Virus record (IMG/VR): IMGVR_UViG_3300042896_001274
Coordinates: 4,035-68,034 of that record
Direction: 5' to 3' (one strand)
Source: a virus
Length of the DNA stretch: 64,000 bases
The position numbers and the translations under genes were made by a program. Positions 24,518 to 52,287 of this stretch are shown piece by piece. Numbering within the stretch: the first letter of the stretch is position 1; each line of letters starts with the position of its first letter. The notes under the pieces were generated by a model, which searched no databases, was not told where the DNA came from, and was given only the letters and a program-made list of their open reading frames with translations.

Positions 24518-24575
24518 ATTTTACAATACCCGATTAAATTGAATTTTTCAGTTGCTTACAACAATAGGTGGTTCT

Positions 24576-27791: not shown

Positions 27792-28700
27792 ATGAATCCC
27801 GCAGCCATTCTAGTACCTCTATTACTTTCAGAACCTGTTTGTTATGAAGATTGTTCTTACATTCCAGGACAATTATTTGCAGAATGGAGCTTTGTTACAG
27901 AAAACAAACATTGGATTTCTGTACAAGATCCTGGGATTTCTATATTAGGATCTCTTAATTGTCCTGATGGGAACATGATTGAGATTAATGGAAGAATGGT
28001 TCCTGATCTCGATCCAAACCCGTATGGTTACGGTACAGCAGAGTGGATGCAAAAACGAGCTTGCACAAAATGGATCAATATAGAATTTCCAGAAAGGTGC
28101 TCACAATTCGATCGATCCAAATGGGAGTGGATGAGAGATTCGCTTGTAAGAACTAATGGTAGAAAAGATATGAATTTCTGCATCGATCGATATGAGTGGC
28201 CCAACCGAGAAGGAGCTGCTCCTTGGATCATGGTAACTTGGACTGAAGCAAAAAAACTTTGCGAATCTAGCGGCAAACGATTGTGTACTGAAGATGAATG
28301 GACTTTCGCATGCGAAGGAGAAGATGCTCTTCCATATCCGAATGGATATATTAGAGATTCTCAAAAGTGTAATATAGACAAACAATGGAAAACTTATAGT
28401 TCAGATCTTTTTCCAAGGGGAACTGAAAAATGTGGAAAAGAGCTAGAAAGACTATGGCAAGGCCACGTTTCAGGATCTGATCCTCAATGTGTTAGTCCAT
28501 TTGGGGTTCATGATATGATAGGAAACGTTGATGAATGGACAACAGCAACTAGACCAAGTAAGTACCCTTCTATTCTCAAAGGAGGATATTGGGGCCCAGT
28601 TAGAACAAGATGCAGACCTTCAACAAGGAATCATGCCCCAGGACATGCATTCTATCAACAAGGATTTAGATGTTGTAGCGATCCAAAGCCTATGCAGTAA
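27792..28700 (+). CDS. formylglycine-generating enzyme (FGE/SUMF1)-domain protein
   Basis: FCIDRYE.P, C...GKRLCTEDEW.FAC, SPFGVHDMIGNVDEW, GFRCC. Confidence 0.85.
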   Translation: MNPAAILVPLLLSEPVCYEDCSYIPGQLFAEWSFVTENKHWISVQDPGISILGSLNCPDGNMIEINGRMVPDLDPNPYGYGTAEWMQKRACTKWINIEFPERCSQFDRSKWEWMRDSLVRTNGRKDMNFCIDRYEWPNREGAAPWIMVTWTEAKKLCESSGKRLCTEDEWTFACEGEDALPYPNGYIRDSQKCNIDKQWKTYSSDLFPRGTEKCGKELERLWQGHVSGSDPQCVSPFGVHDMIGNVDEWTTATRPSKYPSILKGGYWGPVRTRCRPSTRNHAPGHAFYQQGFRCCSDPKPMQ

Positions 28701-36764: not shown

Positions 36765-37348
36765 ACAGCACCTCCACCTCCGCTTCCTGCACCGGCAGCG
36801 ACTGGGGTTGGGAACTCATTATCTTCTTCCTCAGCTTTTGATTTTCCAACAGTGATATCATGTTCATCCTCAAGAACAATCTTAAATTGGGTAACAACAT
36901 CTTGAGAGTAATTGTCAGATAAGAAATTCATTGCTCTGCGAGCCAATGTGTTACGAACCTCTAGAAGAGAATCATAATTGTCGATCAACCTAACAACGCT
37001 TGAAGCAAATTCTTCGATGTCGATATCTTCTGCAGATAGCTTCTTCTTTTCTTCTGGTTTTTCTTCATCTCCCGCTTCATCGGCAGGCTTTTCTTCCTCT
37101 TCGTCACCCTCTGCTTCAAGAAGGTTACGAGAAGTTGTAGATAAAAAGCTACGTGTCATTGAACGAAAGTCAAACCCTTCATTCTTTTTCACCTTGGCAT
37201 CGGATTCGTAGCTAATAAGAAAATCATCGACCTGCTGATCAAGAGAATCTTGAAGCTCTTTCTTAACAGTTTCTTCAAGAAGAACGCTTCTAATCTGCTC
37301 TCTGATTATTTTTTTTAAATCTTGAGAATTAATCTTTCGTGACATCAT
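36761..37348 (-). CDS. protein with N-terminal INSQDLKKIIRE tag (putative virion-internal protein)
   Basis: Tag followed by LLE sites; acidic linker; SLDQQVD. Confidence 0.7.
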   Translation of the reverse strand: MMSRKINSQDLKKIIREQIRSVLLEETVKKELQDSLDQQVDDFLISYESDAKVKKNEGFDFRSMTRSFLSTTSRNLLEAEGDEEEEKPADEAGDEEKPEEKKKLSAEDIDIEEFASSVVRLIDNYDSLLEVRNTLARRAMNFLSDNYSQDVVTQFKIVLEDEHDITVGKSKAEEEDNEFPTPVAAGAGSGGGGAV

Positions 37349-38076
37349 TTCACCTTCAATACTTGAGCCATCGACTCAGCCTTATTAAAACGATCTTCAA
37401 TAACGTTCCAATTAAATTCTCTCATGCGGGCGACGAGATGGCTCTTCTTGTCCGTAAGATAGTCACGGTAATATGCATGCTCCCACATGTCAACTACAAT
37501 AACTGGGTATAGACCCAACATAACATCTCCGCTGTGATGGCTAACTACTGTATTAACGTAACGTTGCAAGAAGGTGTGATATCCACAAACAGCCCATCCA
37601 GATCCAGCTGACATTGCACATGCCATAAAATCTCGTTGCCAATCCTCAAATGTTCCCCAGTCACGTTCAAGTCTCAAGTAAGACAATGAATCCATCGTGA
37701 TCTCTGAGTGAGGGTCAAAACTGTTTGCAAAATAAAGCTCATGAAGCCATGTTGCATTAAGGTTATAAATCTCATCAAGCTTCAAAGAACGATATTCAGA
37801 ATGTTTAGAGTCAGCTGCACCGCGATCAACTGTGTCTAACTTTGCTGAAACCTTATTTAGGGTTTCTACATAACCCTTGTATAGTTGAGCGTGAGCATCT
37901 TTCGTCTTTTGAGTTGAAAACTCAGAAACTTGTTTAAAGATCTTTGGCTCAGCAACGTAAGCTTCATCAAGAGATTCAACCTTTGGTAGAGTTGCAGTCT
38001 GCTGCGCAATTGCACTTTTTACTGTTTTCTTGAGCAAAAGATCCAAATCTACTCCGTCAAATATTTTTTTATCCAT
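37345..38076 (-). CDS. Fe/Mn superoxide dismutase-like protein
   Basis: H..LY.GY, LHELYF, GSGW, DMWEHAYY; N-terminal extension ends SLDE. Confidence 0.85.
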   Translation of the reverse strand: MDKKIFDGVDLDLLLKKTVKSAIAQQTATLPKVESLDEAYVAEPKIFKQVSEFSTQKTKDAHAQLYKGYVETLNKVSAKLDTVDRGAADSKHSEYRSLKLDEIYNLNATWLHELYFANSFDPHSEITMDSLSYLRLERDWGTFEDWQRDFMACAMSAGSGWAVCGYHTFLQRYVNTVVSHHSGDVMLGLYPVIVVDMWEHAYYRDYLTDKKSHLVARMREFNWNVIEDRFNKAESMAQVLKVK

Positions 38077-38085
38077 GATGCTTCA

Positions 38086-38442
38086 TCACTCTCTTTCGTA
38101 ATTATCCTGAAAATCCTGTAACGATACAATAACTTCTTTTGTATCCCCACCGGTTGCTGCTGGGCGACTTAACGTAACTGTCTTATCTTTAACATTAACG
38201 TCAACTACGTCGTAATTCAATCCTGACATAGGATCGCCTTTAGACGCTTTCTTTTTTACTTTTAATCCAACAGCAGCAGAAAGAACATCTTCACTTTTGC
38301 CATCGATATTAGCAAATACTTTAAGACCTGTTTCTGGCTTTTTAGATTGCTTGTTTGGCTTTTCAAGCAAAGAATGAACTTTTTTATCCCATTCTTCTTT
38401 CATGAGATCGATAATATATCTCTCTGTAAGCTTTTGCTTCAT
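38086..38442 (-). CDS. protein with tag-like N-terminal helix
   Basis: KLTERYIIDLMKEE...LLE; ATAATTA at 38459-38465. Confidence 0.6.
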   Translation of the reverse strand: MKQKLTERYIIDLMKEEWDKKVHSLLEKPNKQSKKPETGLKVFANIDGKSEDVLSAAVGLKVKKKASKGDPMSGLNYDVVDVNVKDKTVTLSRPAATGGDTKEVIVSLQDFQDNYERE

Positions 38443-38468
38443 GACAACTCCGTGTAAGTAATTATCGA

Positions 38469-38948
38469 TCAAGTCTCTCGAATCTTCAGGATAGTAGCTG
38501 GATTCTGCAAAAGGTCATCAAATTTAACACATGAAGTACCAGTAACTTCAAATATATGATTGCTAGAGGCTTCTGCATCAATATAATCAGAATGATAGAT
38601 GACGTTCTTAATCCCACTATTAACAATCCTTCTTGCACACATGGAACATGGTTTGTGCGTGCATAACATCAAAAGATCACCTCTTAGTTCATATGGCTTA
38701 CAGAGGTGAAATAAAGCATTTTCTTCTGCGTGAAGAAATCCTGATCTTCCAGACTCTAAAGATGATCTCTCGTTAGGACCGCCTTTATATCCACCGTTGT
38801 ATCCAATTGCACAAACTTCTCGATAATCTTTTGTGATTATGATTGCTGCAACTTTGTATTTCGAGTCATAAGACAATGTCGATAACTCTGTGCACATCTT
38901 CATGAAAACAGATAGTTTTTGTTTATGTCGATTAGATGTGTCAATCAT
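38469..38948 (-). CDS. dCMP deaminase
   Basis: KVAAII, GYNG, HAEEN, PCSMC. Confidence 0.9.
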   Translation of the reverse strand: MIDTSNRHKQKLSVFMKMCTELSTLSYDSKYKVAAIIITKDYREVCAIGYNGGYKGGPNERSSLESGRSGFLHAEENALFHLCKPYELRGDLLMLCTHKPCSMCARRIVNSGIKNVIYHSDYIDAEASSNHIFEVTGTSCVKFDDLLQNPATILKIRET

Positions 38949-39522
38949 GATTGCTAGAAAATAAACTTTCTCTATTTAGAATCAGCGGATGACATTTGCA
39001 ACATCGAGGTTCATATAATTCAGAACCACCGACTTCAATCTCATTCCCACCAGTCTGCTTCTTATAAGTGTAGTAAGCATCTCTATTACAAACTACACAG
39101 ACAGCGCTCAGTTTTTCAACCTTAGTTGCCCAAGGTAACATTTTTTCAATTTCTTCAAAGGGCTTTCCTGCCGCAGAAAGATCTAGACTAGAAACTACAA
39201 CTGAATATCCACTACGATATAACCAAATCAAGACGTCTGCTACACCTGGTATCATGAATGCTTCATCAACCGCAATCACATGAGGATTTTCATCCATCTC
39301 AGCAAGGTGCTCAAGTATGTCTGTCCCATTCTTTACACAAATTGCAGGAATTTTCCACCCGCTATGTGTAGAAATGTTGTCAGTACTATATCGATCATCA
39401 AGGCGAGGTTTGAAAGTTGCGATTCGCTTGCTTTGATATTTGAATCTATCAAGAATTGACAATAATGATGTCGTCTTTGCAGAAAACATCGGCCCACAAA
39501 ATATTGTAAATGTAGCGGTCAT
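38941..39522 (-). CDS. tdk: thymidine kinase
   Basis: GPMFSAKT, KP.LDDRY, VDEA, CxxC, VGGSELYEPRC. Confidence 0.92.
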   Translation of the reverse strand: MTATFTIFCGPMFSAKTTSLLSILDRFKYQSKRIATFKPRLDDRYSTDNISTHSGWKIPAICVKNGTDILEHLAEMDENPHVIAVDEAFMIPGVADVLIWLYRSGYSVVVSSLDLSAAGKPFEEIEKMLPWATKVEKLSAVCVVCNRDAYYTYKKQTGGNEIEVGGSELYEPRCCKCHPLILNRESLFSSNHD

Positions 39523-40514
39523 GGCTTTGCAAAATACCTATACCCTTCAAACGTTGTAGAAAGAAGTAACTTATTTGCCAATTGAGGATCCTTAAGCTTC
39601 GTGGCTCTATGTGATGCCAGTACCTTGCACCAATCAAGCCAATAATCATCAAGACCTGACTGATCAAGGATGTCAGAAATTTTCTTCTCGCAACCAGACT
39701 TTCTAACATCATTCTCCACACCCATCAACAAATCTAGTGGTGGATTACCAGGCATCTGAGGCATCTCTAAAACATTTCGATAATCCTGCTTCTTATCTTC
39801 CTCTAGTATTTTCTCGACCATTTTAAAGTGCCTCTCGTAGACATGAAGAGATGCGCTCAGGTGCGTGTAAGTTCCTAGTCCGATAGGCCGACCCAATTCA
39901 TTTGTGAGCTGAACTGCCAAGAGCTCCTGAAAGATGGTGAATGCTGGAACATCATAGGCTAATCCAAGAATCACATCGGAAGATCTCATCGAGGTCACCA
40001 TATGAATCTTGTCATTCCTCAAGAAAAATTGAAGTGATAGCGTGCAAGGTACATCAAGCTTGGCATACTTGCTGTCTTGCGGCATTCTAATGTGAATCAC
40101 AGCCCTACGAGAATCAGGATCAAGCTTCAACTCATTCTTAACATATTCCCATTGCGTCCATGTCCCCTCTTCAGGACCTTGGTAGGAATGATGTTTAAAG
40201 ATTCTAGACCCATATGAGCTGTTTGCCGTGGCGCCATCGTCAGAAATCTTCGACCAAAATGCAGAATAATTCGAAATCCAGTCGGTGGAGTTGTTTCCGC
40301 TCAAATACCAAAGAAGCTCTGCAACCATGTAGTGAACCGACAAATCTCTACCAGGAACATAAGGAATCCTATTTCTTGGATTTAGTATCTTGAACTGATA
40401 ACCTAAAATTTCTTTTATTTTCATTCCGCGAGGCGATGATGTGAATTCAGGATGTTCGTATACGTCCTTGGCGATATCGACATATGCTTCGGTAAAGTTA
40501 TTATAGACTTTCAT
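39519..40514 (-). CDS. thymidylate-synthase-fold enzyme, predicted dCMP hydroxymethylase/modifying enzyme
   Basis: ELLWYL, DSRRA, PCT, MRSSDVILGLAYD (Asp at the E. coli ThyA Asn177 position), SLHVYE. Confidence 0.8.
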   Translation of the reverse strand: MKVYNNFTEAYVDIAKDVYEHPEFTSSPRGMKIKEILGYQFKILNPRNRIPYVPGRDLSVHYMVAELLWYLSGNNSTDWISNYSAFWSKISDDGATANSSYGSRIFKHHSYQGPEEGTWTQWEYVKNELKLDPDSRRAVIHIRMPQDSKYAKLDVPCTLSLQFFLRNDKIHMVTSMRSSDVILGLAYDVPAFTIFQELLAVQLTNELGRPIGLGTYTHLSASLHVYERHFKMVEKILEEDKKQDYRNVLEMPQMPGNPPLDLLMGVENDVRKSGCEKKISDILDQSGLDDYWLDWCKVLASHRATKLKDPQLANKLLLSTTFEGYRYFAKP

Positions 40515-40515
40515 G

Positions 40516-41487
40516 TTATGCCTTGAGACTCAACTTCTTAATCATATCCCAGTTCTCATCATACCACTTGATGGTACGATCAAGACCCTCCCAAAACCTA
40601 ACTAGAGGAGTGTATCCAAGAACTTCTGTTGTGTTAGAGACATCTGCCAACGTGTGCATGACATCGCCAGGACGCCATGGTGCATCATGATACTTTGCAT
40701 CTGGATATTTGGATAAAAGATATTGAAGAATTTCTTTGTTTGTAGTTCTATCTCCACAAGCTACATTTAAAGACTTAGCCCTTAATAGGCCTGAAGCCTC
40801 GCCGGCTCTTATGCAAGCATCAACGACATTGTCAACATAGCACATATCGCGAGATTGAGAACCGTCCCCATCTGAACGCATAGATTTTCCATTTTTAATT
40901 GCGGTAAGCCATGATCCAATTACCGTCGCGTATGGAGAATCTCCGAGTTGGTGTGGTCCAAAAACATTAAAAAATCTTAAAGATACAGAGTCTAAACAAT
41001 AGAGATCATTATACATTTTCAAATAATCTTCGATGATAGATTTTTGTAACGCATAAGGAGACTTAGGACTCTTTTGACACGTAACGGGGGTCGGCAACAA
41101 TTCTGTGTTTCCATACACAGAAGATGATGATGCAAAAACAAAACGTTTAATATTGCCTCTGCGGCAAGCATCAATTAGTTTAAGTGTTTTTGAAACGTTT
41201 ATATCGTTGGTTTCTAATGGATACTTTACTGAATAACTAACTCTTGGAACTGCTGCAATATGAAAAACAACATCATATAACTTTGATCTAACACGATTCA
41301 AAATTTCTTCTGAAGAAAAATCATCGATAATAATCTTAGATTTTAATTCTTCTAGTAGAAATTCTATTTTTCCATTTGACATATCATCAACGATATCAAC
41401 ATCAACTCCTCTTTTTGTCAATTCAATTGCCAAATTGCTACCGATGAATCCTGCTCCACCAGTCAATAATGCTCGTCTTGTCTTCAT
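40516..41487 (-). CDS. NAD-dependent nucleotide-sugar epimerase/dehydratase
   Basis: TGGAGFIGS, ASSSSVYG, PYALQK, RFFNVFGP, RPGDV. Confidence 0.9.
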   Translation of the reverse strand: MKTRRALLTGGAGFIGSNLAIELTKRGVDVDIVDDMSNGKIEFLLEELKSKIIIDDFSSEEILNRVRSKLYDVVFHIAAVPRVSYSVKYPLETNDINVSKTLKLIDACRRGNIKRFVFASSSSVYGNTELLPTPVTCQKSPKSPYALQKSIIEDYLKMYNDLYCLDSVSLRFFNVFGPHQLGDSPYATVIGSWLTAIKNGKSMRSDGDGSQSRDMCYVDNVVDACIRAGEASGLLRAKSLNVACGDRTTNKEILQYLLSKYPDAKYHDAPWRPGDVMHTLADVSNTTEVLGYTPLVRFWEGLDRTIKWYDENWDMIKKLSLKA

Positions 41488-41538
41488 ACCGTTTCAAATA
41501 TTATAACATTTTTTTACCAAAGTTCATTACTTATTTTC

Positions 41539-42249
41539 ATGAAAACGTTTAACATCATCAATCATTCTTCCAAGGTCTCAAATGACGATCTACAACTAAT
41601 GATAGAAGCTTGTAAGATTCAACTAAGAGATCATGCTGGACCCGCACTGGACAGAACGCCTTGGGACATCAAGCTCAGCGGAGATGATGGGTTTCCTATG
41701 AATATCTTTGATGATACCGATCATGCAGGAGTCATGGGATATCACAGCCAAGACCCAAACGGGAAAGTCTGGGGTAGGGTCTTTGTGAATCCCATTCTAA
41801 ATAGTGGCGGAACAATTATGAACGGAACAAAATCCGTCTCGGTGGTACTGTCACACGAAATTCTTGAAACCTTCTACAATCCGTATATCAATCTTTGGTC
41901 AAATAGAGGTGATGCCACTTTTGTTGCCGTTGAACTTTGTGACCCTGTCGAAAATCATAGTTACGAAATTGACGTAAATGGTAAATCAGTAAGTGTATCA
42001 AACTTCGTTCTTGAATCTTGGTTTGATAAGGAAATGGCGTCGGCAGGAAAGTTTGATTATCTTTCTATTTTAAAATCACCTTTAACTTTAGCGCCGGGCG
42101 GGTACAACATCATTTTCGATAGCATAACAGGAAAAATGGGACCTGTATTTGCATCAAAAGAAGATGAAGATGCTCATGATTTGTTCAAACCTTCCCATCC
42201 TGCCGCGAGATCAAACAGGCACAAATCATTCAATACCACCACCACCTGA
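41539..42249 (+). CDS. putative zinc metallopeptidase
   Basis: GYH...SHEILE...ELCDP. Confidence 0.55.
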   Translation: MKTFNIINHSSKVSNDDLQLMIEACKIQLRDHAGPALDRTPWDIKLSGDDGFPMNIFDDTDHAGVMGYHSQDPNGKVWGRVFVNPILNSGGTIMNGTKSVSVVLSHEILETFYNPYINLWSNRGDATFVAVELCDPVENHSYEIDVNGKSVSVSNFVLESWFDKEMASAGKFDYLSILKSPLTLAPGGYNIIFDSITGKMGPVFASKEDEDAHDLFKPSHPAARSNRHKSFNTTTT

Positions 42250-42456
42250 AGATCCATCAACTGATTTTGATGTAGATGAGTATAGATCTTTATACCATCC
42301 TCCACCCTTCAGCGCAAATCCAGATCCTCCTGAAATTAATCTTTGAAGTGCACTCACCAAACATTTTGGACACTCTGACAGTGGGTCATCCTTCATGGAT
42401 TGAAATGCTTCAAAACAATGATTACAACACTTACATTGATATTCGTATGTAGGCAT
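42226..42456 (-). CDS. FmdB-family zinc-ribbon protein
   Basis: MPTYEYQC..C...CPKC...LKGGGWY..Y. Confidence 0.88.
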   Translation of the reverse strand: MPTYEYQCKCCNHCFEAFQSMKDDPLSECPKCLVSALQRLISGGSGFALKGGGWYKDLYSSTSKSVDGSSGGGGIE

Positions 42457-42468
42457 TTGCTTTTCTCC

Positions 42469-43245
42469 TCATGGCACAATAACTACTGGAAATAAAACCT
42501 GCTGACCTGTAATCTTTTGAACATCCTGTTGTCTATCATTCTTTAATGGCCCATTTGATGTAACAAGATGAGACATGTTTGGATCTTTGACAAGATCAGA
42601 GAAACGATATTCAACTCCATCAATCCAACATAGTTGCGAAACTAGTTGACAAGTTTGAGAATAATCCGTGTGATTCGGATCATGGGCAGTTGCATTAGGT
42701 TGAATAACCTTTGCGCCCTTTCCACAATACAAGGTTGCTGCAGGAAATCCCGTAATTCCGTTGAACGAAGCACCTGTAAAGTGCCATCCATAATTGCAAG
42801 CCTGCCTTCTTGCATATTCTAGCTTTTTATCAAGAATCCAGTGTTTTCCTGCAGGAGAAACAATTCCTCCGTTGTACGCCCCCAGAAGCTTATCTACTCG
42901 TTGACTATGAGCCAGCATAGACTGAACTGAAGATGAAATAGGTTGAGGAGAAGGAGCAATTCGATGATTCGCGTTTGCATACATAAAATCTGCTACCTGA
43001 GCAGTTAACAGGGATGCATCAAATACATCTGCAAGTTGTTGTTGTAATGTCGCTGTGACATTGACACGAACTCCACCAATTTTGAGTGCATCTGACATGA
43101 CATCGAGCTTTACTTTTTTTCCAGCGATGTCATATTCAAGAGGAACCCAAGATGCTTCAAAATTTCCTGCAACAACTTGATCAAAGATGTACTTTTGACG
43201 ATCAGGGATCTTTTCTGGAAATATTGTCGTTGTAATCATGATCAC
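42469..43245 (-). CDS. conserved hypothetical protein
   Basis: DALKIG...GKHWI...NYGWH...H...H.DYSQ. Confidence 0.7.
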   Translation of the reverse strand: MIMITTTIFPEKIPDRQKYIFDQVVAGNFEASWVPLEYDIAGKKVKLDVMSDALKIGGVRVNVTATLQQQLADVFDASLLTAQVADFMYANANHRIAPSPQPISSSVQSMLAHSQRVDKLLGAYNGGIVSPAGKHWILDKKLEYARRQACNYGWHFTGASFNGITGFPAATLYCGKGAKVIQPNATAHDPNHTDYSQTCQLVSQLCWIDGVEYRFSDLVKDPNMSHLVTSNGPLKNDRQQDVQKITGQQVLFPVVIVP

Positions 43246-44231
43246 TTTTTCCAGAAAGAGTACATGTTCTTCTCAATCTCATAATCCATATTCTTCATCG
43301 GACGATTTGGTTGTTCTTGCGCCCACTTAAACATCTTCATAATGGTTTCATGAAGATCTGTATTGTCTTTAAATCCAAGAAGCTTGTGTGCCTTTGTATG
43401 ATCGCAATATGCAGTATGAACTTCATTACGAGGTTCAAGATGAACCTTAGTTGCATTGATTCCTAGTTCCTTAGCAACGTTAATGACTGCTTCTGCAGCT
43501 TCATTAATTGTATAATGTTTATCTGCACCGATGTTGAATATCTCACCATCATGAGCAGTCATCAGTTTTTCAAAAGGATCCATGTAGAACTTAATGTCAG
43601 AAAATGCGCGGATCTGAGTGCCGTCTCCGAAAATAGTCAGAGGTTCACCAGCCAAAGCCTTACGAATCCAGATTCCAATAACATTACGATAACGATCCCA
43701 GATGTTTTGATAAATTCCAACAACGTTATGAGGACGAACAATACTATACTTCAATCCAAACATTTCATGCGCAAGTTTTAGATCCATTTCAACAGCATAC
43801 TTTGCGATACCATATGGATCTTCAGGCGTCGGAAGCTGACTTTCTGTAAACGGAGGGTTTCCTACACCATATACCGCCATAGATGAAGTAAAAACAACCT
43901 TCTTAATTTCGTTATTGATACATGCATTAATGACGTTTGCTGAAGAAAGAATGTTATTCGTATAATTGTAATTACGAATAAAAGGACTCAATCCTTCTGC
44001 AGCGTATGCCGCAAAATGGAAAACATAGTCTGGCTTTTCACTTGAAAAAATTTCTTCTACAGCTTTTCGATTTGAAAGATCTTGTTTATAAAATGTCATT
44101 TTAGAAGGAACTGAATCTTCATATCCTCCACTAAGATCATCAATTCCTACGACTTTATAACCCTTATTCAAAAGATGACGAGAAAAGTTTGCGCCGAGAA
44201 GACCTGCTGCACCTGTGATTAATACTTTCAT
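43242..44231 (-). CDS. NAD-dependent nucleotide-sugar epimerase (GalE-like)
   Basis: TGAAGLLG, HFAAYAAEGLS, SSMAVYG, YGIAK, GDGTQ.RAF. Confidence 0.9.
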   Translation of the reverse strand: MKVLITGAAGLLGANFSRHLLNKGYKVVGIDDLSGGYEDSVPSKMTFYKQDLSNRKAVEEIFSSEKPDYVFHFAAYAAEGLSPFIRNYNYTNNILSSANVINACINNEIKKVVFTSSMAVYGVGNPPFTESQLPTPEDPYGIAKYAVEMDLKLAHEMFGLKYSIVRPHNVVGIYQNIWDRYRNVIGIWIRKALAGEPLTIFGDGTQIRAFSDIKFYMDPFEKLMTAHDGEIFNIGADKHYTINEAAEAVINVAKELGINATKVHLEPRNEVHTAYCDHTKAHKLLGFKDNTDLHETIMKMFKWAQEQPNRPMKNMDYEIEKNMYSFWKK

Positions 44232-44238
44232 TTTTTCC

Positions 44239-45264
44239 TCACACTAAGGACTCTAGAAAATCTACAACTCCGTCAATAGAAAATACACCGCTCGATTTTA
44301 AATTGTTTTCTTGTTCTAAAATTAATGAAGTTCTATCATCAATCGACATCGAAAATATCTGCTTTACTTTATCAACGACAGATCCAGATCCAGTAACAAT
44401 CCAATCTTTTCCTAATAGACCTGGGATCAAAAATTCTTCTGGTACTAATCCTGGTACATTTGAAACTATGTTTTCTACGTACCTAGGAGAAGCAAATCCT
44501 CGAAGTGCATATTCTGGTTTTGTTATGTGTGTTGTACAGACGAACGTATTCAACCTCTTCATCGAATCATAGAAGTTTAACCTAGGAGCGAATGCAACGT
44601 TCATATGAGATGATATCAACTTTTTAGGGGATTCACGCTCAGGTGAAACTTCTAACCAGTTTCCATGAACCGTTGTTTGGATACCAAATTCCCTAAGTTG
44701 TGAAGAAGGAAATGAATAATAACGTTCAAACGCTTGTGGGCGTTCATAATTGTTACCAACGTATCCGTACTCGAATGATGATCCATTAACTGGCATCAAT
44801 TTCTTCCAATCCGTCCAGAACATGAGACGAGTACGGTTCCTAGTCAAGCTTCTAGGATCAAATGCTGGATCTGCAATAACGGCTTGCGGCCACTTCAACT
44901 CGTCTTGTTCTGTGACCTTATAATCACAATCCCAAATCACGACAGGGATTTTTCCATGATAATAAGATAAAAGCTCAGTCTGTCGATCAAGATCTGGTTC
45001 AAACTTACTTGAACCAGAATTCTTATATGTTGGCCATCTCCACTCTACAAACAAAATATCAATATCAGGAAATCCATCATCATACTTCAATCCAGGATAT
45101 GGGGCTGGTTCCCTACGGGCTTGTAATGAATAAACTTCATGACCTCTTCCTACCAAAGAATCTACCATAATAGGCCGACCGTACCGATGACCGTCCGGCG
45201 TCTTTGCTTCTTTTGACGCCTCGAAAGGCTCACAAAATCCCCAATAACTGATTCCTAGTTTCAT
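44239..45264 (-). CDS. GT-B glycosyltransferase, T4 beta-glucosyltransferase-like (putative DNA base glycosyltransferase)
   Basis: C-terminal GFASPRYVENIVSNVPGLVPEEF parallels T4 BGT FITLRVWE.MAS...LIDEEF (recalled); genomic context. Confidence 0.65.
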   Translation of the reverse strand: MKLGISYWGFCEPFEASKEAKTPDGHRYGRPIMVDSLVGRGHEVYSLQARREPAPYPGLKYDDGFPDIDILFVEWRWPTYKNSGSSKFEPDLDRQTELLSYYHGKIPVVIWDCDYKVTEQDELKWPQAVIADPAFDPRSLTRNRTRLMFWTDWKKLMPVNGSSFEYGYVGNNYERPQAFERYYSFPSSQLREFGIQTTVHGNWLEVSPERESPKKLISSHMNVAFAPRLNFYDSMKRLNTFVCTTHITKPEYALRGFASPRYVENIVSNVPGLVPEEFLIPGLLGKDWIVTGSGSVVDKVKQIFSMSIDDRTSLILEQENNLKSSGVFSIDGVVDFLESLV

Positions 45265-45265
45265 G

Positions 45266-45802
45266 TTATCCTTTTTTATTAATAAATTCTAGAATGGTTT
45301 TCATTTCCCAATCAATGTCTTCTGAATCGACGCACAGTCGCAGAGTCTCACATTTGGTCCAAATTATAAATTCAGCATACATGTCAGATATTTTTTGCAT
45401 TGCTTTGCAATCAATGTCATGCATATCATCATGCATTCCTTCATATGATGTTCTGTACGGAATCACAATTTTAACGCCTACTTTAGCTGCAAGGTCATCG
45501 ACATATGTCAACGCTTCATGATCAGTGATTCTATTATAAACTCTTGAGTATACCCATTCAGAAGGATAAGAACGATCAAGAACGACAGAAGTTCCTGTCA
45601 TCTTTAAAAAATTATAAAAATATGGATCTCCATACTTCAATGCGTTTGAAAAATATGAAGGATCTTTTGAGAAAGCATTCCATTCAGATTCGTTCTTAAA
45701 ATACGGAACTTGAATTCTTTTTGACAATTCGCGAGCCATCTCCGTCTTGCCGACCTTATCAGACCCATCAAATAAAATAACGGTTCCCATTTTATTCCTC
45801 AT
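45266..45802 (-). CDS. dNMP kinase (thymidylate-kinase-like), probable modified-dCMP kinase
   Basis: DGSDKVGKT P-loop, LDRSYPSEWVY. Confidence 0.75.
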   Translation of the reverse strand: MRNKMGTVILFDGSDKVGKTEMARELSKRIQVPYFKNESEWNAFSKDPSYFSNALKYGDPYFYNFLKMTGTSVVLDRSYPSEWVYSRVYNRITDHEALTYVDDLAAKVGVKIVIPYRTSYEGMHDDMHDIDCKAMQKISDMYAEFIIWTKCETLRLCVDSEDIDWEMKTILEFINKKG

Positions 45803-48036
45803 GAATCAATGATCTTAATACGGTTCATGAAAGTTTTATTACCGTAGTTATCAACCGTGATTTCAGAAAGACAAACACTATATTTTGGAATCTCAGTCTT
45901 GCCATCCCATCCCCAACAAAACAACCTTCGATTTTGACCGCCTAATCCAGTTATGGTCAACAACAAATAAGGTTTTCCTGTCTTGGTTTTCTTTGGTTTT
46001 GAATCAGCAATGATAAACCAATAAATGTTTGTATCTGAAAGATCGTCGACCGATTGAACACCCTTCGATTCAAGCTTTTGAAGAATGTCTTCAGGCATAA
46101 GCATAGCTGCGTTGAATGACCCGAGATATTTTATGCTGTTATCTACCATCTCAGATCTGGTCCATTCTTCAATATCTTGAGTTTCGATTAAGATATTTTT
46201 AAATGATTCCATTCCGACCAACGGATTCTTTTTTGTATGTTTCTTGATTTCTACATTCCTATCAATCAAGATTTCATTCATTTGCTTATAACTGCTAAAC
46301 GTTTTTCCGTATCCGATACAATCCAAAGAATCGAAGGCTTTAATTCCAATCAGCGCTTCGAGTGAACGTTTATTAAATTTTGAATGTTTCCACGAACCGT
46401 CTTCATTCCACAACATCTCTTCTACATTCTTATAAGGACGCTTTTCAATAATCTCATCCACCGCTGACTCGCCAACTCCCTTACATGAAAGGAAGCTCGG
46501 CATAAATCGTTTGCCTTCCAAAATAGTCCAGCTCTTCGTCGCATAGTTAATGTCGATATTAACGATTTTATATCCCAATGCTTTAACTTCAGAGAATGCT
46601 TTAGAACGTTTTTCGTCATTTCCTGACATGGATTCAAGATATGCACAAAGCCATTCCTCTTCAAAGTAAGTTAGAAGCCATGCACAGTAGTAAGAATCAA
46701 TTGCATAAGAAACTGCGTGAGATGCATTGAAACCGTATCCTGAGAAGAACAACATCTTTTCATACAGCTCGTCTGCAACTCTTTCAGGTATTCCATTCTT
46801 CATTGATCCGTTAACGAACTCTTCTTTTGCCTTGCGAGCATCTGCAGCAGCATCATCTTTCTTTGCAGCAGAACGTTTCATAATGTTTCTACGGATCGTG
46901 TCTGTCTCTGCCTCAGGAAAACCTGCAACTACAGAGCACAACTTCATAACTGATTCTTGGAAAATGATGCAACCATACGTGTTCTTAAGAACCTTTTCAA
47001 TCAATGGATGTTGATAATCGATGTTATCTGCATTGTTCTTCGCGTCGATGTAAAGCTTATCAACGTTCGCAGCCAATGGACCTGGACGATAGATTGAAGT
47101 CAACGTTGCGATGTCGATGATGTTACGAGGCTTTGCCTTCATAAAAAGGCGTTGCGCGCCAGGCTGCGTACATTGGAAAACACCGGCAAATCTTCCTTCA
47201 TGATAAACATATTCATAGACCTTTTGATCGTTTAGATCAATGTTCTTTGGATCCATGCGTTTATCGAACCACGACTTGATGTCTTTAAATGTAGGATTTG
47301 CGATTCCTTCTCTACGTTGTAAGATCAAATGAATGCATCGTTCAATGATTCGTAAGGTTTCAAGGCCAAGCAAATCGAACTTAATCCAACCAAACTCTTC
47401 TAGATGTTTGTAATGCATGCCCTCGACCCATGGCGTTTGAGGTTCGCCACGGGCCAAGATGAGAGGCATCTGTTCTGCAACATTTTCAGATACGATAACT
47501 CCACCAGCATGACGGCCAAGAGATCTGTTTTGTTTGAATAAAATCTCAATCGGCTCTGCAACTTCAGGATGCAAAGCCACAAAGTCTTGCATGGATTTTG
47601 AATACTTCATCGCATCTTCATACGTCAAAGTAAACAAATTCTTGTCAACACCAGGTTTAAAAACTTCTTTCTTAACGTCATCCTCAATGGGAGCCAATGC
47701 AGCATTCACTTCTTCGAATGGAATGTTATAGAACCTAGCAATGTCCTTGATAAGGCTCTTTAGCTTAAAAGTATTGTAGTTAGAAATTGGAATGACATTA
47801 TGATTTCCAAAATTTTCGCGAAGCAAGTCGATTAGCTTATCACGGTCTCCAATATCAGAATCGATATCAGGAGCACCTGAATTATGAGTTAACAGCCATT
47901 CTTTACTTGTGTTTGAAACAAAAAACGTGTGATCATCGTCAACTTCGATATCGATTAATTCGATTTCATCTTCTAGGTCAACAATCTCAATTGAATTAAT
48001 CTTTGTACGTTTTAATGAGATAAGCTGTTCTTCCAT
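45799..48036 (-). CDS. dnaE: DNA polymerase III alpha subunit, C-terminal half with N-terminal split-intein C-fragment
   Basis: HN/S splice junction, then SGAPDIDSD, GRHAGGV, KFDLLGL, GVFQ, YRPGPL, IFQE, YGFNASHAVSY. Confidence 0.95.
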   Translation of the reverse strand: MEEQLISLKRTKINSIEIVDLEDEIELIDIEVDDDHTFFVSNTSKEWLLTHNSGAPDIDSDIGDRDKLIDLLRENFGNHNVIPISNYNTFKLKSLIKDIARFYNIPFEEVNAALAPIEDDVKKEVFKPGVDKNLFTLTYEDAMKYSKSMQDFVALHPEVAEPIEILFKQNRSLGRHAGGVIVSENVAEQMPLILARGEPQTPWVEGMHYKHLEEFGWIKFDLLGLETLRIIERCIHLILQRREGIANPTFKDIKSWFDKRMDPKNIDLNDQKVYEYVYHEGRFAGVFQCTQPGAQRLFMKAKPRNIIDIATLTSIYRPGPLAANVDKLYIDAKNNADNIDYQHPLIEKVLKNTYGCIIFQESVMKLCSVVAGFPEAETDTIRRNIMKRSAAKKDDAAADARKAKEEFVNGSMKNGIPERVADELYEKMLFFSGYGFNASHAVSYAIDSYYCAWLLTYFEEEWLCAYLESMSGNDEKRSKAFSEVKALGYKIVNIDINYATKSWTILEGKRFMPSFLSCKGVGESAVDEIIEKRPYKNVEEMLWNEDGSWKHSKFNKRSLEALIGIKAFDSLDCIGYGKTFSSYKQMNEILIDRNVEIKKHTKKNPLVGMESFKNILIETQDIEEWTRSEMVDNSIKYLGSFNAAMLMPEDILQKLESKGVQSVDDLSDTNIYWFIIADSKPKKTKTGKPYLLLTITGLGGQNRRLFCWGWDGKTEIPKYSVCLSEITVDNYGNKTFMNRIKIIDS
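47881..48036 (-). mobile_element. split intein C-fragment (52 aa)
   Basis: Block F (IDIEVDDDHTFF) and block G (LLTHN) followed by Ser +1. Confidence 0.92.
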
Positions 48037-48931
48037 AATCTTTATTTTCTAAATTGGGGATTTTATCATAGAGACCAGATGATCTCAACATTGAATAAAA
48101 ATCGTTCATATACACGACTTTTATTTTCACATCTGCAGAATTTAAACTCTCCCTAGCAGCTGAATTTGAATTTAACTTTTTCGAGAATAAATTTTCACTT
48201 TCTCGAATACCTTTTAATTCGATAAATTCGCCTAAGTCTGGTAAGTAAAAATCGGGAGTATAAAATCTTTTCTTTCCGTTTATTTCCGTTTCAAAAACTT
48301 TTTTTTCGTATTCAAATCGAATTTTTAGATAAATGCAATATCTCGCGTAATCTGCTTCAAGAGAACTTTTAAAATAAGGAGAATCTTGTATGTCAACCCT
48401 CCACCCTGTTCTTCCGTTTGTGTGTGACTTTATCAACCCTAACGATTGACCTTTTCTTGAACAAATTTTATTACAAAAACGAGTTGTTGCAGATTTTTTT
48501 ACTGTTAGTTTAGAGTTGCAAACTTCACAAAAAATATCTTTTCTATCATAAAGACTTTTTGAAAAACAATCAGGAGAACAAAATTTCTGAGTGCTATTTT
48601 CATTTATCTCAAACTGTTTAAGACAGTTATTACATTTTTTTTGGACTTTTACATGCCTGGTATTAACAAATGACATGTGCTTTGCGTAACAATTTTTTGA
48701 ACACGTCACACGATTTTTTGCTTGCGAATGAGGAAGATAAAATTCTTTACAACATATCTTGCATTCAACTTTTTGCTTAGATCCATTTTCAGGAATTTTG
48801 TACCAGGCTTTTTTGCATTTTTCACCGCAGTACTTCTTTCTTGCTGAACCTGCAGAACCAGATCCATTAACGACATATTCTACATAAAAAATCTTTTTGC
48901 AATGTTTACATGTTTTCTCAATTCTTTTCAT
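47996..48931 (-). CDS. free-standing putative homing endonuclease: four zinc-finger repeats plus PD-(D/E)XK domain
   Basis: Four CxxC...C-x3-C units; FKSSLE, YTPDFYLP, FIELKG; AT-rich; lies between the intein halves. Confidence 0.8.
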   Translation of the reverse strand: MKRIEKTCKHCKKIFYVEYVVNGSGSAGSARKKYCGEKCKKAWYKIPENGSKQKVECKICCKEFYLPHSQAKNRVTCSKNCYAKHMSFVNTRHVKVQKKCNNCLKQFEINENSTQKFCSPDCFSKSLYDRKDIFCEVCNSKLTVKKSATTRFCNKICSRKGQSLGLIKSHTNGRTGWRVDIQDSPYFKSSLEADYARYCIYLKIRFEYEKKVFETEINGKKRFYTPDFYLPDLGEFIELKGIRESENLFSKKLNSNSAARESLNSADVKIKVVYMNDFYSMLRSSGLYDKIPNLENKDYGRTAYLIKTYKD

Positions 48932-48939
48932 GCAGATAA

Positions 48940-49218
48940 TTATTTAACGATAGACAATAATTCGTCTGTAATTAAAATTTCTTTAGCTTGAACTTCAATC
49001 TTTTTATCATCACGGACAACAATCCATAGATGATTTTCTGAACATTCGATACACCCTTCATCAGTTCTAAATCGATAAACTCTTTTTGCTTTTGAAATAA
49101 ACTTGCTATTAACTTTCTTTAATGACCCAGATCCTCCGACTACTAAATCACCAATTTCTAAATCTTTGATTTTTTTAAAACTTTTTTCAGTTTTTACTAA
49201 AGTTTCTGGATTTAAACA
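48940..49218 (-). mobile_element. split intein N-fragment (92 aa)
   Basis: Block A CLNPETLV, KIKDLEIGDLV, block B CSENHLW, then a stop codon. Confidence 0.92.
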
Positions 49219-50718
49219 TCTATGAGGATTAAGAAACCTTTCAAACGAAAGGTCGTACTCCATTGGGTCAAGGTTCGTCACACCAAGAACATAAGCAACA
49301 AGAGAACCTGCTGCAGATCCTCGACCTGGACCGATCAGCATGTGTTCGCGGGCGATATCCATGATCGCCTTCATCGTCAAGAAGTACCTAGAGAACTTCT
49401 TACCCTTAATGATTCCTAGTTCATACTTAATACGCTCGATGTACTCTGGTTTGTCATCGAGTCCCCGCCAAACAAGTCCTTTCTTACAAGCATCAACCAA
49501 TGCCTTGTCCTCTGTCATTCCTTCCGGAATCACGTAGGAAGGAAGCTTCATCTCTTTGTTGGGATGAATGTCTCCAATTTCGTTGTGGACGATGTCGTGT
49601 GTGCGCTCAACTGCTTCACGAACAACATCATCATCATAGAACTCCATCTCACCAGCTGTCTGGATATAAGAATCCCAGACCTGAGAAGCATTCTTTGGAT
49701 ACAACTCGCACTTAAGATCATCCTTAGATTTTGGAAGCTGGCTAGGGTCAAAGTTTTGATAGTTCAACCAACCAAGTTTCTTATAGATCTCACGTTCCTT
49801 CCAGTTGTCTGGTCGAGCATAGTGAGAATCGCACGTCACGATCAACCTGTCTTCAAGGGAATTTCTCTTTGCAAATTCGATGATCGCACGATTGACAAGA
49901 TGCTGAGCAGGAAGCTTGTTAAACTGAAGCTCTAGACATACGTTATCACGACCTAGAGCGTCTGCTAATTTGTCATAGGTATTACCCATCTCGAGTAGAG
50001 CAGCTTCCATGATGGACTGATCATCCAGAAGCTTGTAGGAAAGGTCCTCGAATTTTACTCGTTGAACCTTTGAGAACACGTCATACGACAGCGGCCCTCC
50101 CAGACAAGCTGAGCTCACCATCAAGTGACCACCTTGAGCTGCTTCCTTAAGCATTCCGTAATCAACTCGTGGGAACCTGTAGAAGCCCTCCAAATAACCT
50201 CGAGAAACTAGATGGAATAATCTTTGTAGACCAATCGAGGTTTTTGGTAGGACAACCAGATGGTGCCGGCGCTTCACTGGGTCATTGTACTTACCAGATT
50301 TTGTCTCTTCCTCGTTCTCAATGGTCAGAGCAGCTTCGTCTGTTCCAATATCTGTTGTCTCATCATTTCCATCTACTACTGCAGTGAGAGGTGTGAGGAT
50401 AGACTCATCTTTGACAGGCTTCTCTTTTGATTTTTGTAGGTCCCTCTGCCACTGCTTCAAGTCAGGATGGACGTACATCTCACACCCAGGAATGAACTTA
50501 AAGTTCTTACCAGACTTACGAAGCTTCTCAGCATGAAGGTAGGCATGTCCAAAACCATTCATGTGACCATGGTCGGTCAGCGACCATGCGTCCATTCCAT
50601 TCTCAAGAACATAATCGATGTGCTCTTGTGGGTAGTCAAGTCCATCGAAGGTTGAAAATCCAGAGTGAGAATGTACACCTACGAATCGTGAGGGCACTTT
50701 TTTGTGATTTACGCTCAT
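48940..50718 (-). CDS. dnaE: DNA polymerase III alpha subunit, N-terminal half (PHP domain) with C-terminal split-intein N-fragment
   Basis: HSHS..S.FDG, TDHG, GCEMY, DSHY, GPGRGSAAGSLVAY, FERFLNPHR followed by CL. Confidence 0.95.
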   Translation of the reverse strand: MSVNHKKVPSRFVGVHSHSGFSTFDGLDYPQEHIDYVLENGMDAWSLTDHGHMNGFGHAYLHAEKLRKSGKNFKFIPGCEMYVHPDLKQWQRDLQKSKEKPVKDESILTPLTAVVDGNDETTDIGTDEAALTIENEEETKSGKYNDPVKRRHHLVVLPKTSIGLQRLFHLVSRGYLEGFYRFPRVDYGMLKEAAQGGHLMVSSACLGGPLSYDVFSKVQRVKFEDLSYKLLDDQSIMEAALLEMGNTYDKLADALGRDNVCLELQFNKLPAQHLVNRAIIEFAKRNSLEDRLIVTCDSHYARPDNWKEREIYKKLGWLNYQNFDPSQLPKSKDDLKCELYPKNASQVWDSYIQTAGEMEFYDDDVVREAVERTHDIVHNEIGDIHPNKEMKLPSYVIPEGMTEDKALVDACKKGLVWRGLDDKPEYIERIKYELGIIKGKKFSRYFLTMKAIMDIAREHMLIGPGRGSAAGSLVAYVLGVTNLDPMEYDLSFERFLNPHRCLNPETLVKTEKSFKKIKDLEIGDLVVGGSGSLKKVNSKFISKAKRVYRFRTDEGCIECSENHLWIVVRDDKKIEVQAKEILITDELLSIVK

Positions 50719-50781
50719 CTTTGCCTGTCTGTACATTGTATCCCAAAGGACAACGATTTTGCACAACAAAGATTCTGAAAT

Positions 50782-51282: not shown

Positions 51283-52287
51283 TCACATTACCTGTGCCGC
51301 GATCAAGCAACCACGGGCAACGGCATGAAGAGGATCTGCTGCATGACGGACCTCCTTGACTGGAAGAGGAAATCCATTTTCCTCAAGTTTCTTTGCGAAT
51401 AGATCCACGAAACCCTTGGCCTTCGAAGTTCCACCGGCGACGACGATCGGAAGCGGATCCTTGAATTTCGGAATTGATTTATGACCATCCATCGCTGATG
51501 CCAATTGCTTCGTCGTATAATCGATCAAACGATCGTAGTAAGAAGCAACGGCTGCTAGAACCTGATTATCATTTGGCTCACCGACCGTAAAGTCGCCTTG
51601 TTCCTTCTCTGCCTGGACAATAGAGTCGGCTTCACCTGTTGCGACGGCTGCCATGCGGTCGACCCAATCACCTGACTTCGTTGTGGAAAATGTGACGACA
51701 GGTTCACCGTTCAACATCACACAAACGTTGACCATACCTGCACCCCATGAAAGAGCAACTCCGGTATAATCATCCTTTTCTAGTTCTGAATAGCAAAGGG
51801 CTTCGGCCTCATTGATTGCACGAGCAGAGTATCCTACCTCTGTTAGGAGCTTGACAATAACATCCTCGTGATAACCAACATCGAAGTCATCATCCTCCTG
51901 ATCAACAGGCTGTGCGGGGATGCAAAACACCAACTTCTCTCCAGGCTCTGAAGGCTTACCAGAAACTTCCTTTAAGATATACGTTAGGATCCTGCGAGCA
52001 TCTTTCTCCTTAGAAGAAACCACTCCTTTATACATTGGACGCTTGGCTGAGTCGTTTCTTTCTACGGCCTTTTCAATTGCGTCCTTGCCGAGGATGATGA
52101 AAGAACCGTCTTCATCCTTGACGAAAGTCTTTCCTGCGAGACCTTTCTCAATCATCTTGGTTGCGATGGGTGTTGTTGGTTTGATGACATAAAATGCATC
52201 GCGGAAATCCTTATATGTAACTTTGTTCTTAGAGCCTTCTTCAGCGAGAACGATGAAAGAAGTACCGACGTCGAGACCTTTAGCCAT
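51283..52287 (-). CDS. actin-like ATPase (MreB/ParM/Alp superfamily)
   Basis: GLDVGTS (phosphate 1), RP..GV, INEAEA (connect 1), SWGAG (phosphate 2), VAGGTS (adenosine), AVARG. Confidence 0.85.
   Translation of the reverse strand: MAKGLDVGTSFIVLAEEGSKNKVTYKDFRDAFYVIKPTTPIATKMIEKGLAGKTFVKDEDGSFIILGKDAIEKAVERNDSAKRPMYKGVVSSKEKDARRILTYILKEVSGKPSEPGEKLVFCIPAQPVDQEDDDFDVGYHEDVIVKLLTEVGYSARAINEAEALCYSELEKDDYTGVALSWGAGMVNVCVMLNGEPVVTFSTTKSGDWVDRMAAVATGEADSIVQAEKEQGDFTVGEPNDNQVLAAVASYYDRLIDYTTKQLASAMDGHKSIPKFKDPLPIVVAGGTSKAKGFVDLFAKKLEENGFPLPVKEVRHAADPLHAVARGCLIAAQVM

Follow-up and report, generated by a model that had tools for sequence, protein, structure and literature searches.

What might a phage make with a kinase, a glycosyltransferase, two nucleotide-sugar epimerases, and a relative of thymidylate synthase, all encoded side by side directly behind its DNA polymerase gene? 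The question is raised by positions 38,469 to 45,802 of a viral DNA stretch of 64,000 nucleotides (positions 4,035 to 68,034 of IMG/VR record IMGVR_UViG_3300042896_001274). We call this whole stretch the window, and all coordinates below refer to it. A first, sequence-only reading had proposed that the phage replaces cytosine by 5-hydroxymethylcytosine (hmC) before replication and glycosylates it afterward. Our follow-up confirms the observation and supports this interpretation in part: we consider it likely that the block encodes a pre-replicative cytosine hypermodification module, in which hmC would be formed first and then glycosylated. The evidence for this proposal includes the diagnostic residues of the thymidylate synthase-like (ThyA-fold) enzyme and the persistence of its gene close to that of the transferase in related loci.

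The ThyA-fold enzyme as a predicted dCMP 5-hydroxymethylase

The ThyA-fold enzyme of the block has the thymidylate synthase fold (PF00303) with the catalytic Cys146 and Glu58 at the aligned positions. Its best match in the Protein Data Bank (PDB) is MilA (5jnh, 8.1e-46, residues 4-326), while ordinary thymidylate synthases are found at about 1e-17 to 1e-21 and the T4 deoxycytidine monophosphate (dCMP) hydroxymethylase 1b49 at 1.7e-15; identity to the latter protein, T4 gp42, is 29% over 225 residues. As MilA is the nearest structure for the 5-hydroxy-dCMP (5hodCMP) synthases of phages DLP3, RB69, and RL38J1 too (PMC13326640 Table 1), the best match leaves the chemistry undecided, and residue rules were used instead.

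To this end, the window protein was aligned with 13 relatives from IMG/VR, T4 gp42, RB69 gp48, and Escherichia coli ThyA, whose numbering is used throughout. It carries E58, R126, R127, D143, C146, S167, D169, D177, H207, and Y209, and every one of these except R127 is shared by 13 of 13 relatives (L015, one of the loci introduced below, has Gln at position 127). The combination C146/D143/D169/D177/S167/R126 is the same as in T4 gp42. The sequence-only reading had quoted the string RSSDVILGLAYD, which is indeed present in the translation and whose Asp aligns to E. coli ThyA Asn177. It had also held that Asn at this position selects dUMP and Asp selects dCMP, a rule in agreement with PMC13326640 and with the accessible part of PMC5175136, both of which connect N177D to the choice of dCMP or cytosine. 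With Asp177 in the window and in every relative, the claim of a dCMP-specific C5 enzyme is supported, and the remaining positions favor hydroxymethylation over methylation or hydroxylation.

Three other identities were considered and rejected on this alignment. A dCMP methylase would have a bulky hydrophobic residue at position 143; the window protein has Asp there, three residues ahead of the catalytic Cys, as do T4 gp42 and MilA, and L143D/E goes with a hydroxymethyl instead of a methyl product (PMC13326640). A 5-hydroxy-dCMP synthase of the kind represented by RB69 gp48, DLP3 gp80, and RL38J1 gp216 would have Asn169, since D169N marks the flavin-dependent hydroxylases and 9 of 9 D169N homologues tested gave 5-hydroxy-dC (5hodC) (PMC13326640). 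RB69 gp48, a verified 5hodCMP synthase that served as the positive control, does read Asn169 in our alignment, whereas the window protein and 13 of 13 relatives read Asp169. Finally, a CMP-preferring enzyme like MilA or BcmA would carry Ala and Lys (Ala176 and Lys133 in MilA) in place of Ser167 and Arg126. According to the accessible part of PMC5175136, Ser and Arg go with deoxyribose substrates, and the double mutant A176S/K133R shifts MilA to dCMP. Because the diagnostic residues are those of T4 gp42, we predict that the ThyA-fold protein is a long, MilA-like dCMP 5-hydroxymethylase.

Gene content and conservation of the cluster

All genes named by the sequence-only reading were recovered in their places on the minus strand, those of the block downstream of the split dnaE (list of open reading frames (ORFs), translations, and Pfam/PHROG searches). 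Three ORFs in the block come in addition to its list: orf258, a 76-residue zinc ribbon, and orf236. The genes discussed here are the following (window coordinates, strand, and description).

48940-50769, minus: N-terminal part of the split DnaE (dnaE N-part)
47996-48931, minus: HNH/endonuclease-like ORF between the dnaE halves (phrog_1271, 6.1e-13)
45799-48036, minus: dnaE C-part, family C polymerase (tblastn against annotated phage DNA polymerase III alpha genes, at most 29% identity); upstream border of the module
45266-45802, minus: Tmk/YorR-like kinase, 178 amino acids (phrog_761 thymidylate kinase, 5.6e-12; P-loop GSDKVGKT)
44239-45264, minus: GT-B glycosyltransferase, 341 amino acids (fold from an AlphaFold model, see below)
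43242-44231, minus: SDR1 (PF01370, 2.1e-49)
42469-43245, minus: orf258 (no Pfam, PHROG, or NCBIfam match)
42226-42456, minus: zinc ribbon, 76 amino acids (PF09723, 2.6e-14)
41539-42249, plus: orf236 (no family match)
40516-41487, minus: SDR2 (PF01370, 3.5e-48)
39519-40514, minus: ThyA-fold enzyme, 331 amino acids (PF00303, 9.1e-30)
38941-39522, minus: tdk, thymidine kinase (PF00265, 1.6e-40)
38469-38948, minus: dCMP deaminase (PF00383, 4.8e-18; phrog_174, 3.8e-28)
60383-60751, minus: all-alpha NTP pyrophosphatase, MazG/dimeric dUTPase-like, 122 amino acids (PF08761, 7.3e-6; phrog_12184, 1.2e-14)
62077-62682, minus: canonical thymidylate kinase Tmk (PF02223, 1.1e-10)
63209-63868, minus: ThyX, flavin-dependent thymidylate synthase (PF02511, 9.3e-36)

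From 50.8 down to 38.5 kb the minus strand thus holds a densely packed gene run, with gaps of 1-12 nt or overlaps of 4-8 nt within the block; the stop of the dnaE C-part overlaps the kinase start by 4 nt. Only orf236 lies on the plus strand, dividing the block into two transcription units. A promoter/terminator scan found 22 promoters against 25.3 expected from shuffles, no better than chance.

To follow the cluster beyond the window, IMG/VR was scanned with the transferase family alignment, yielding 14 loci (L002-L015) in which the window proteins were placed by tblastn. Linkage to ThyA could be judged in 13 of them, as the contig of L007 ends short of that point. In all 13, no more than a few genes separate the transferase from the ThyA homologue, and in 12 of the 13 the kinase is clustered with both. 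Kinase and transferase are adjacent or near each other in 13 of the 14 loci, the kinase being not found only in L015, a 7.6-kb fragment. The arrangement varies: the transferase directly adjoins the hydroxymethylase in L009 and L010, and in L013 and L014 the gene order is rearranged with the genes still together. Even the transferase of L015, with an identity of no more than 28%, abuts a ThyA homologue and dnaE. A swap is seen in L013, where a dCMP hydroxymethylase of the type of T4 gp42, itself established by experiment (12878-13459 of that locus; 54% identical to T4 gp42 over 201 residues), stands in place of the long form, and the transferase (44%) and the kinase (47%) are retained. We regard this non-orthologous swap with conserved partners as strong evidence that the partners need a cytosine derived from 5-hydroxymethyl-dCMP (hm-dCMP). 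Together with the linkage in every assessable locus, it supports the functional tie between transferase and ThyA-fold enzyme that had been proposed from the window.

Other members of the block are distributed differently. Of the two epimerases, SDR2 is the one most often kept, its best-matching homologue falling within the module in 11 of 13 loci where this could be assessed, and a pyrophosphatase homologue lies directly upstream of dnaE, beside the module, in L008, L011, and L014. On the other hand, only the closest relatives (L002-L007) have orf258, the zinc ribbon, and orf236 in the module, which places these three outside the conserved core. Neither orf258 nor orf236 has a Pfam, PHROG, or NCBIfam match, and atlas searches with them give hypothetical viral clusters only. 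Of the two, orf258 belongs with at least 202 metagenomic relatives, a family in which numerous His, Cys, Asp, and Trp positions are invariant. Its model (predicted local distance difference test (pLDDT) 77.8) yields nothing at E<=0.001 in Foldseek, and its best fold match, a C-type-lectin/FGE-like one at Z 6.5, is under the noise level of about 8.

The glycosyltransferase

The transferase of the window has no match in Pfam, PHROG, or NCBIfam, phmmer against PDB sequences gives chance-level matches only, and tblastn against 50,697 GenBank phage records (T4 included) finds none. Relatives come from metagenomes (214 at E<=0.001), several of them on contigs of 190-290 kb, and the family is without a characterised or cultured member. 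Among its 30 aligned members, 14 match PF13524 (glycosyl transferase group 1-like, C-terminal domain; best E 6e-9), the window protein not being one of them.

An AlphaFold model built on the family alignment (pLDDT 93.2, pTM 0.90) shows the two Rossmann domains of a GT-B fold, which confirms the fold that the sequence-only reading had assigned. A search of 48,161 PDB representatives with VIA-align put the T4 beta-glucosyltransferase (BGT; 1c3j) in the top rank with Z 21.9, 294 of 333 residues aligned, and a root-mean-square deviation of 3.7, tied with PimA (21.9) and followed by BshA (21.2) and T4 alpha-glucosyltransferase (AGT; 1y6f, 19.9). The Foldseek comparison with T4 BGT that this reading had suggested matched BGT at about 1e-8, behind enzymes of the GT4 class (BshA and tll1591, about 1e-10). 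A search of BFVD with the model returned generic viral GT-B proteins with no standout, including transferases of Bacillus phage SP-15 and Rhizobium phage RL2RES and one protein named DNA alpha-glucosyltransferase.

The sequence-only reading had further seen a T4 BGT-like C-terminus. Profile comparison with hhalign aligns residues 246-329 with BGT 251-334 (82 C-terminal columns) at E 0.0014, against E 0.36 for the T4 AGT control, and the invariant R261 and E264 fall opposite the BGT segment TLRVWETM, which we take to bind UDP through Arg269 and Glu272. No residue could be assigned to the catalytic Asp of the BGT N-terminal domain. The match is weak, with a probability of 17%, and none of the 30 family members matches the BGT family of Pfam (PF09198, which we take to be CAZy class GT63) at E<=1. 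The resemblance thus survives as a weak but specific hint, and membership in the T4 BGT sequence family was rejected on the hhalign, Pfam, and tblastn results. Comparison with the RB69 transferases gp47 and gp46 was not significant (hhalign E 0.2 and 0.58, respectively), and a 'DCD(F/Y)' string common to the family and the RB69 transferase proteins was set aside as too short to count. We also dropped the acidic isoelectric point (pI) of the family (median 5.96, n=30) as an argument against DNA binding: T4 AGT itself has a pI of 6.11 (T4 BGT 9.05), and the DnaE parts of this phage are acidic as well. Taken with its neighborhood, the protein is a candidate hmC glycosyltransferase.

Sugar supply by two epimerases

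Both SDR proteins are of the extended-SDR class and resemble 4-epimerases. The best PDB match of SDR1 is 4zrm, the UDP-hexose (UDP-glucose) 4-epimerase of Thermotoga (1.7e-45), whereas SDR2 matches enzymes of the UDP-N-acetylhexosamine (UDP-HexNAc) 4-epimerase type (6dnt, 2.8e-58; WbgU, 1.4e-47; WbpP, 5.9e-43). The NCBIfam scores of the SDRs are far under every equivalog cutoff, including that of the best model for SDR2 (TviC-type, 1.5e-45). SDR1, SDR2, and 12 aligned homologues contain the GxxGxxG motif together with Ser124, Tyr149, and Lys153. At the position of E. coli GalE Tyr299, a gatekeeper where a small residue admits N-acetylated substrates, SDR1 has Ala and SDR2 has Thr. The suggestion that two phage epimerases point to a sugar other than glucose is supported by the PDB matches and catalytic residues.

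Which sugar this might be can be narrowed by comparison. Phage-encoded nucleotide-sugar supply for DNA glycosylation has been shown or predicted for RB69, DLP3, and RL38J1 (PMC13326640). In addition, the accessible part of a metavirome study (Pyle et al., bioRxiv 10.1101/2023.12.21.572611; cited as Cell Rep 2024 in the accessible part of PMC12619734) describes 'subclass II' transferase-epimerase pairs that place hexose (Hex), HexNAc, or hexuronic acid (HexA) on 5hmC in an epimerase-dependent way. Given these epimerase-dependent DNA transferases and the likeness of SDR2 to UDP-HexNAc epimerases, the sugar is probably of the galactose (Gal) or N-acetylgalactosamine (GalNAc) type. The same report makes the phrase 'possibly new base' in the sequence-only reading an overstatement, as Hex-, HexNAc-, and HexA-5hmC are already described there.

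The cluster kinase

The kinase has no Pfam match of its own; its best PDB match is YorR (2axp, E 0.19), which is also the best match for DLP3 gp78 (PMC13326640 Table 1). Its identity to RB69 gp45 is 26% (pairwise E 1e-9), and by this similarity and its position it belongs with the cluster kinases of the RB69 gp45, DLP3 gp78, and RL38J1 gp214 type. The sequence-only reading had called it a dNMP kinase and, beside Tmk, the second kinase. That assignment is weakened: the protein is a P-loop protein of the Tmk/YorR type related to gp45, and a relationship to the kinase gp1 of T4 was not found (E 1.6). Nor was a gp1-type kinase found in the window's own record or in the records of five relatives, all six of them incomplete (those of the relatives 52-84% complete), which fits a role of the cluster protein as hm-dCMP kinase. 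We therefore treat it as a candidate kinase for hm-dCMP or glycosylated hm-dCMP.

Nucleotide pools and the polymerase

ThyX and Tmk are encoded apart from the block, at 62-64 kb, as the sequence-only reading had noted. With ThyX supplying dTMP, the ThyA-fold enzyme is free for cytosine. That reading had also suggested that dCTP is removed as by T4 gp56. The gene at 60383-60751 does encode an all-alpha NTP pyrophosphatase (PF08761, 26.8 bits against a cutoff of 22.9), and its likeness to gp56 is confined to a C-terminal local match of 42 residues (33% identity, pairwise E 9e-6). A dCTPase function is plausible on these grounds.

The sequence-only reading had pointed to a family C instead of a family B polymerase, and here the surprise is limited: 5hmdC enters plasmid DNA in E. 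coli expressing the T4 hydroxymethylase (PMC13326640), from which we infer that the polymerases of E. coli as a host accept 5hm-dC. The dnaE gene itself shows a separate peculiarity. Its halves have intein-like ends, and the HNH/endonuclease-like ORF lies between them in the window. An ORF at this place is matched in L003, L007, and L013, whereas the dnaE parts abut without an inserted ORF in L002, L005, L006, L008-L011, and L014. The inserted ORF is also absent from L004, but there a gap of about 2.2 kb separates the matched parts, and L012 has no dnaE match within its flanks. The dnaE insertion is thus polymorphic in the clade.

Relation to known systems

The module shares several traits with T4: the pre-replicative logic, the hydroxymethylase diagnostic residues, dCMP deaminase, tdk, a gp56-like pyrophosphatase, and a hydroxymethylase and GT-B transferase close to the polymerase gene (the T4 order being 43, imm, 42, b-gt), with BGT in the tied top structural rank for the window transferase. 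It differs in that the hydroxymethylase is the long MilA-like form of 331 residues instead of 246, the kinase is Tmk-like instead of gp1, the transferase falls outside the BGT Pfam family, the polymerase belongs to family C, and dTMP comes via ThyX. Moreover, T4 uses host UDP-glucose, whereas two epimerases are encoded here.

A second group of relatives in logic are the glycosyl-5-hydroxycytosine systems of RB69, DLP3, and Rhizobium phage RL38J1 (Lee et al., NAR 2026, PMC13326640). In these phages, the kinase, the base-proximal transferase, and the ThyA homologue follow each other in the same order as here (RB69 gp45, gp46:47, and gp48; DLP3 gp78-80; RL38J1 gp214-216; PMC13326640 Table 1). MilA as the nearest structure of the ThyA homologue and phage-encoded nucleotide-sugar enzymes are further common features. 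They differ in having D169N flavin-dependent hydroxylases versus Asp169 here, and in obtaining the sugar via an arabinose pathway or UDP-galactopyranose mutase, where this phage has 4-epimerases; in the case of RB69, the transferases also have no significant profile similarity to the window family. From the shared kinase-transferase-ThyA order, the module is best described as the hydroxymethyl-type counterpart of the core found in phages with chemically shown glycosylated cytosines.

The pairing of a transferase with a sugar epimerase is in turn shared with the metavirome subclass II systems. As far as the accessible part of that study goes, 5hmC arises there post-replicatively through a methyltransferase and a TET-like dioxygenase, unlike the pre-replicative ThyA homologue here. 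The same portion of the study surveys GT-B contigs and places about 28% of them in association with homologues of thymidylate synthase, epimerases and dCMP deaminase also being encoded in the vicinity. Outside phages, MilA (the CMP 5-hydroxymethylase of mildiomycin biosynthesis; 5jnh, 5b6d) matches the ThyA-fold enzyme over the full length including the C-terminal extension and shares Asp143 and Asp177. Its ribose-selecting Ala176/Lys133 are Ser and Arg here, as in deoxyribose-specific enzymes, and no MilB-type N-glycosidase is encoded near the module. The accessible part of PMC12619734, on a new aquatic jumbo-phage lineage, mentions glycosyltransferases and neither DnaE nor thymidylate synthase. 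We found no literature description of the exact module; the supplements of the two key papers, which were outside the search, may list the transferase family or contigs.

Proposed pathway and alternative explanations

In the proposed pathway, the ThyA-fold enzyme would convert dCMP and methylene-tetrahydrofolate to 5-hydroxymethyl-dCMP, as its diagnostic residues suggest, and the Tmk-like kinase would, together with a host NDP kinase, raise hm-dCMP to the triphosphate. The all-alpha pyrophosphatase probably depletes dCTP, while dCMP deaminase, ThyX, Tmk, and tdk would maintain the dTTP supply. The split DnaE polymerase would then incorporate hm-dC, and the GT-B transferase would add a sugar to the hydroxymethyl group, using a donor that the phage 4-epimerases make from host UDP-sugars (most likely UDP-GalNAc or UDP-Gal). 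DNA of this kind would withstand the restriction and CRISPR nucleases of the host.

Several points weigh against this pathway. The acceptor of the transferase, be it DNA, a nucleotide, or something else, is inferred from synteny. The window transferase matches no Pfam family itself and its relatives do not match that of BGT, and fold likeness (Foldseek, VIA-align) does not tell BGT apart from GT4 enzymes with small-molecule or lipid acceptors. For RB69, phosphorylation of 5hodCMP or modified dCMP has been demonstrated with the gp1-type kinase and not with the gp45 type (PMC13326640). The match to gp56 is short, three ORFs without an assigned function lie within the block, and the record is a fragment, estimated to be 21% complete. 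Lastly, the 20 public sequencing runs that hold the stretch keep it as assembled contigs only, from which no base-modification signal can be read.

Could the first sugar instead be added to the mononucleotide? The transferase would then act on hm-dCMP, the Tmk-like kinase would be specialized for the bulky product, and DnaE would take the glycosylated nucleotide. A similar kinase does accompany the base-proximal transferase and the ThyA homologue in RB69, DLP3, and RL38J1, without an assigned role there; the experiments of PMC13326640 do not distinguish mononucleotide from post-replicative first glycosylation, with single transferases inactive on 5hoC DNA, and the six incomplete records yielded no gp1-type kinase. 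Nevertheless, all DNA glycosyltransferases characterised so far (T4 AGT and BGT, later arabinosyltransferases, and the metavirome enzymes) act on DNA, and the route demands a polymerase that tolerates a very bulky dNTP; the acidic pI of the transferase family is uninformative, given the similar value of T4 AGT. We hold this to be unlikely, and quite unlikely in its fullest form, where the whole core would work at the nucleotide level, with hm-dCMP glycosylated (probably by a Gal/GalNAc-type sugar), activated by the Tmk-like kinase, and incorporated by the family C polymerase. It is likewise rather unlikely that hmC DNA is made while the transferase and epimerases serve virion proteins, host envelope glycans, or a small molecule. 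In favor of such a role, small-molecule and lipid transferases (BshA, PimA, and tetrahydrobiopterin and selenosugar enzymes) rank among the best structural matches, and about 65% of the phage GT-containing contigs surveyed are not beside a base-modification enzyme (accessible part of bioRxiv 10.1101/2023.12.21.572611). What speaks against it is the clustering of transferase and ThyA homologue in all 13 assessable loci, which survives rearrangement and an identity as low as 28% and includes the kinase in 12 cases; the same partners kept through the swap in L013; and the same gene order in three phages with proven glycosylated cytosines. Different chemistry at the first step, with the ThyA homologue making 5-hydroxy-dCMP as in those three phages or 5-methyl-dCMP, or using CMP like MilA, strikes us as highly improbable. 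The genes are arranged as in the 5hoC phages, and MilA is the best PDB match, as it is for their synthases, but Asp169, Asp143, and the pair Ser167 and Arg126 argue against hydroxylation, methylation, and a CMP preference, respectively. The preferred reading is pre-replicative formation of hmC followed by its glycosylation.

The phage and the rest of the window

The window makes up 64 kb of a 68-kb record whose estimated completeness implies a phage of about 300 kb, and relatives lie on contigs of 187-278 kb; the source is an uncultured freshwater jumbo phage. The 7.3-kb block has no megablast match among GenBank phages. At least half of the sampled words of 38469-45802 are held by 20 public runs from 19 studies, all of which carry the label lake, freshwater, or plain metagenome and five of which may represent the source sample; the phage thus turns up repeatedly in lakes.

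Beyond the module, the window holds some further genes worth recording. An Fe/Mn superoxide dismutase homologue (37345-38076; PF02777, 6e-20) lies two genes downstream of the module, past a 128-residue ORF (38086-38472), and is kept at the same place in most relatives. A small HhH-GPD glycosylase (13224-13646; PF00730, 1.7e-8) could process deaminated modified cytosines, and a 5'-3' exonuclease is found at 17594-18421. Metabolic genes uncommon in phages are represented by isocitrate lyase (24552-25826; PF00463, 2.6e-102), an IMPDH/GMP reductase family protein (53383-54468; PF00478, 9.5e-85), and adenylosuccinate lyase (3486-4754; PF00206, 1.8e-53). Finally, there are a protein with an FGE-sulfatase (sulfatase-modifying factor-like) domain (27792-28700; PF03781, 2.7e-20) and an actin-like protein of the Volactin family (51283-52287; PF25216, 4.6e-67).

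Significance

The strategy itself is known, from the T4 approach, the RB69/DLP3/RL38J1 gene order, and the epimerase coupling of subclass II. What differs is the combination of a long MilA-type dCMP hydroxymethylase, a Tmk-like kinase, an uncharacterised GT-B family, ThyX, and a split family C polymerase. The gain would stay incremental if neither the sugar nor the level at which it is added turned out to be out of the ordinary. As the core order is common with the 5-hydroxycytosine phages, the module is a good system for the question whether the first sugar is added at the nucleotide or the DNA level; should the whole core work on nucleotides, it would be the first pre-replicative DNA glycosylation and would answer that question for RB69 and DLP3. 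If the preferred reading is true, modified-base work and 5hmC-tagging enzymes would gain a new DNA glycosyltransferase family and a further sugar variant, and a jumbo-phage clade widespread in fresh and marine waters would shield its DNA with glycosylated hydroxymethylcytosine.

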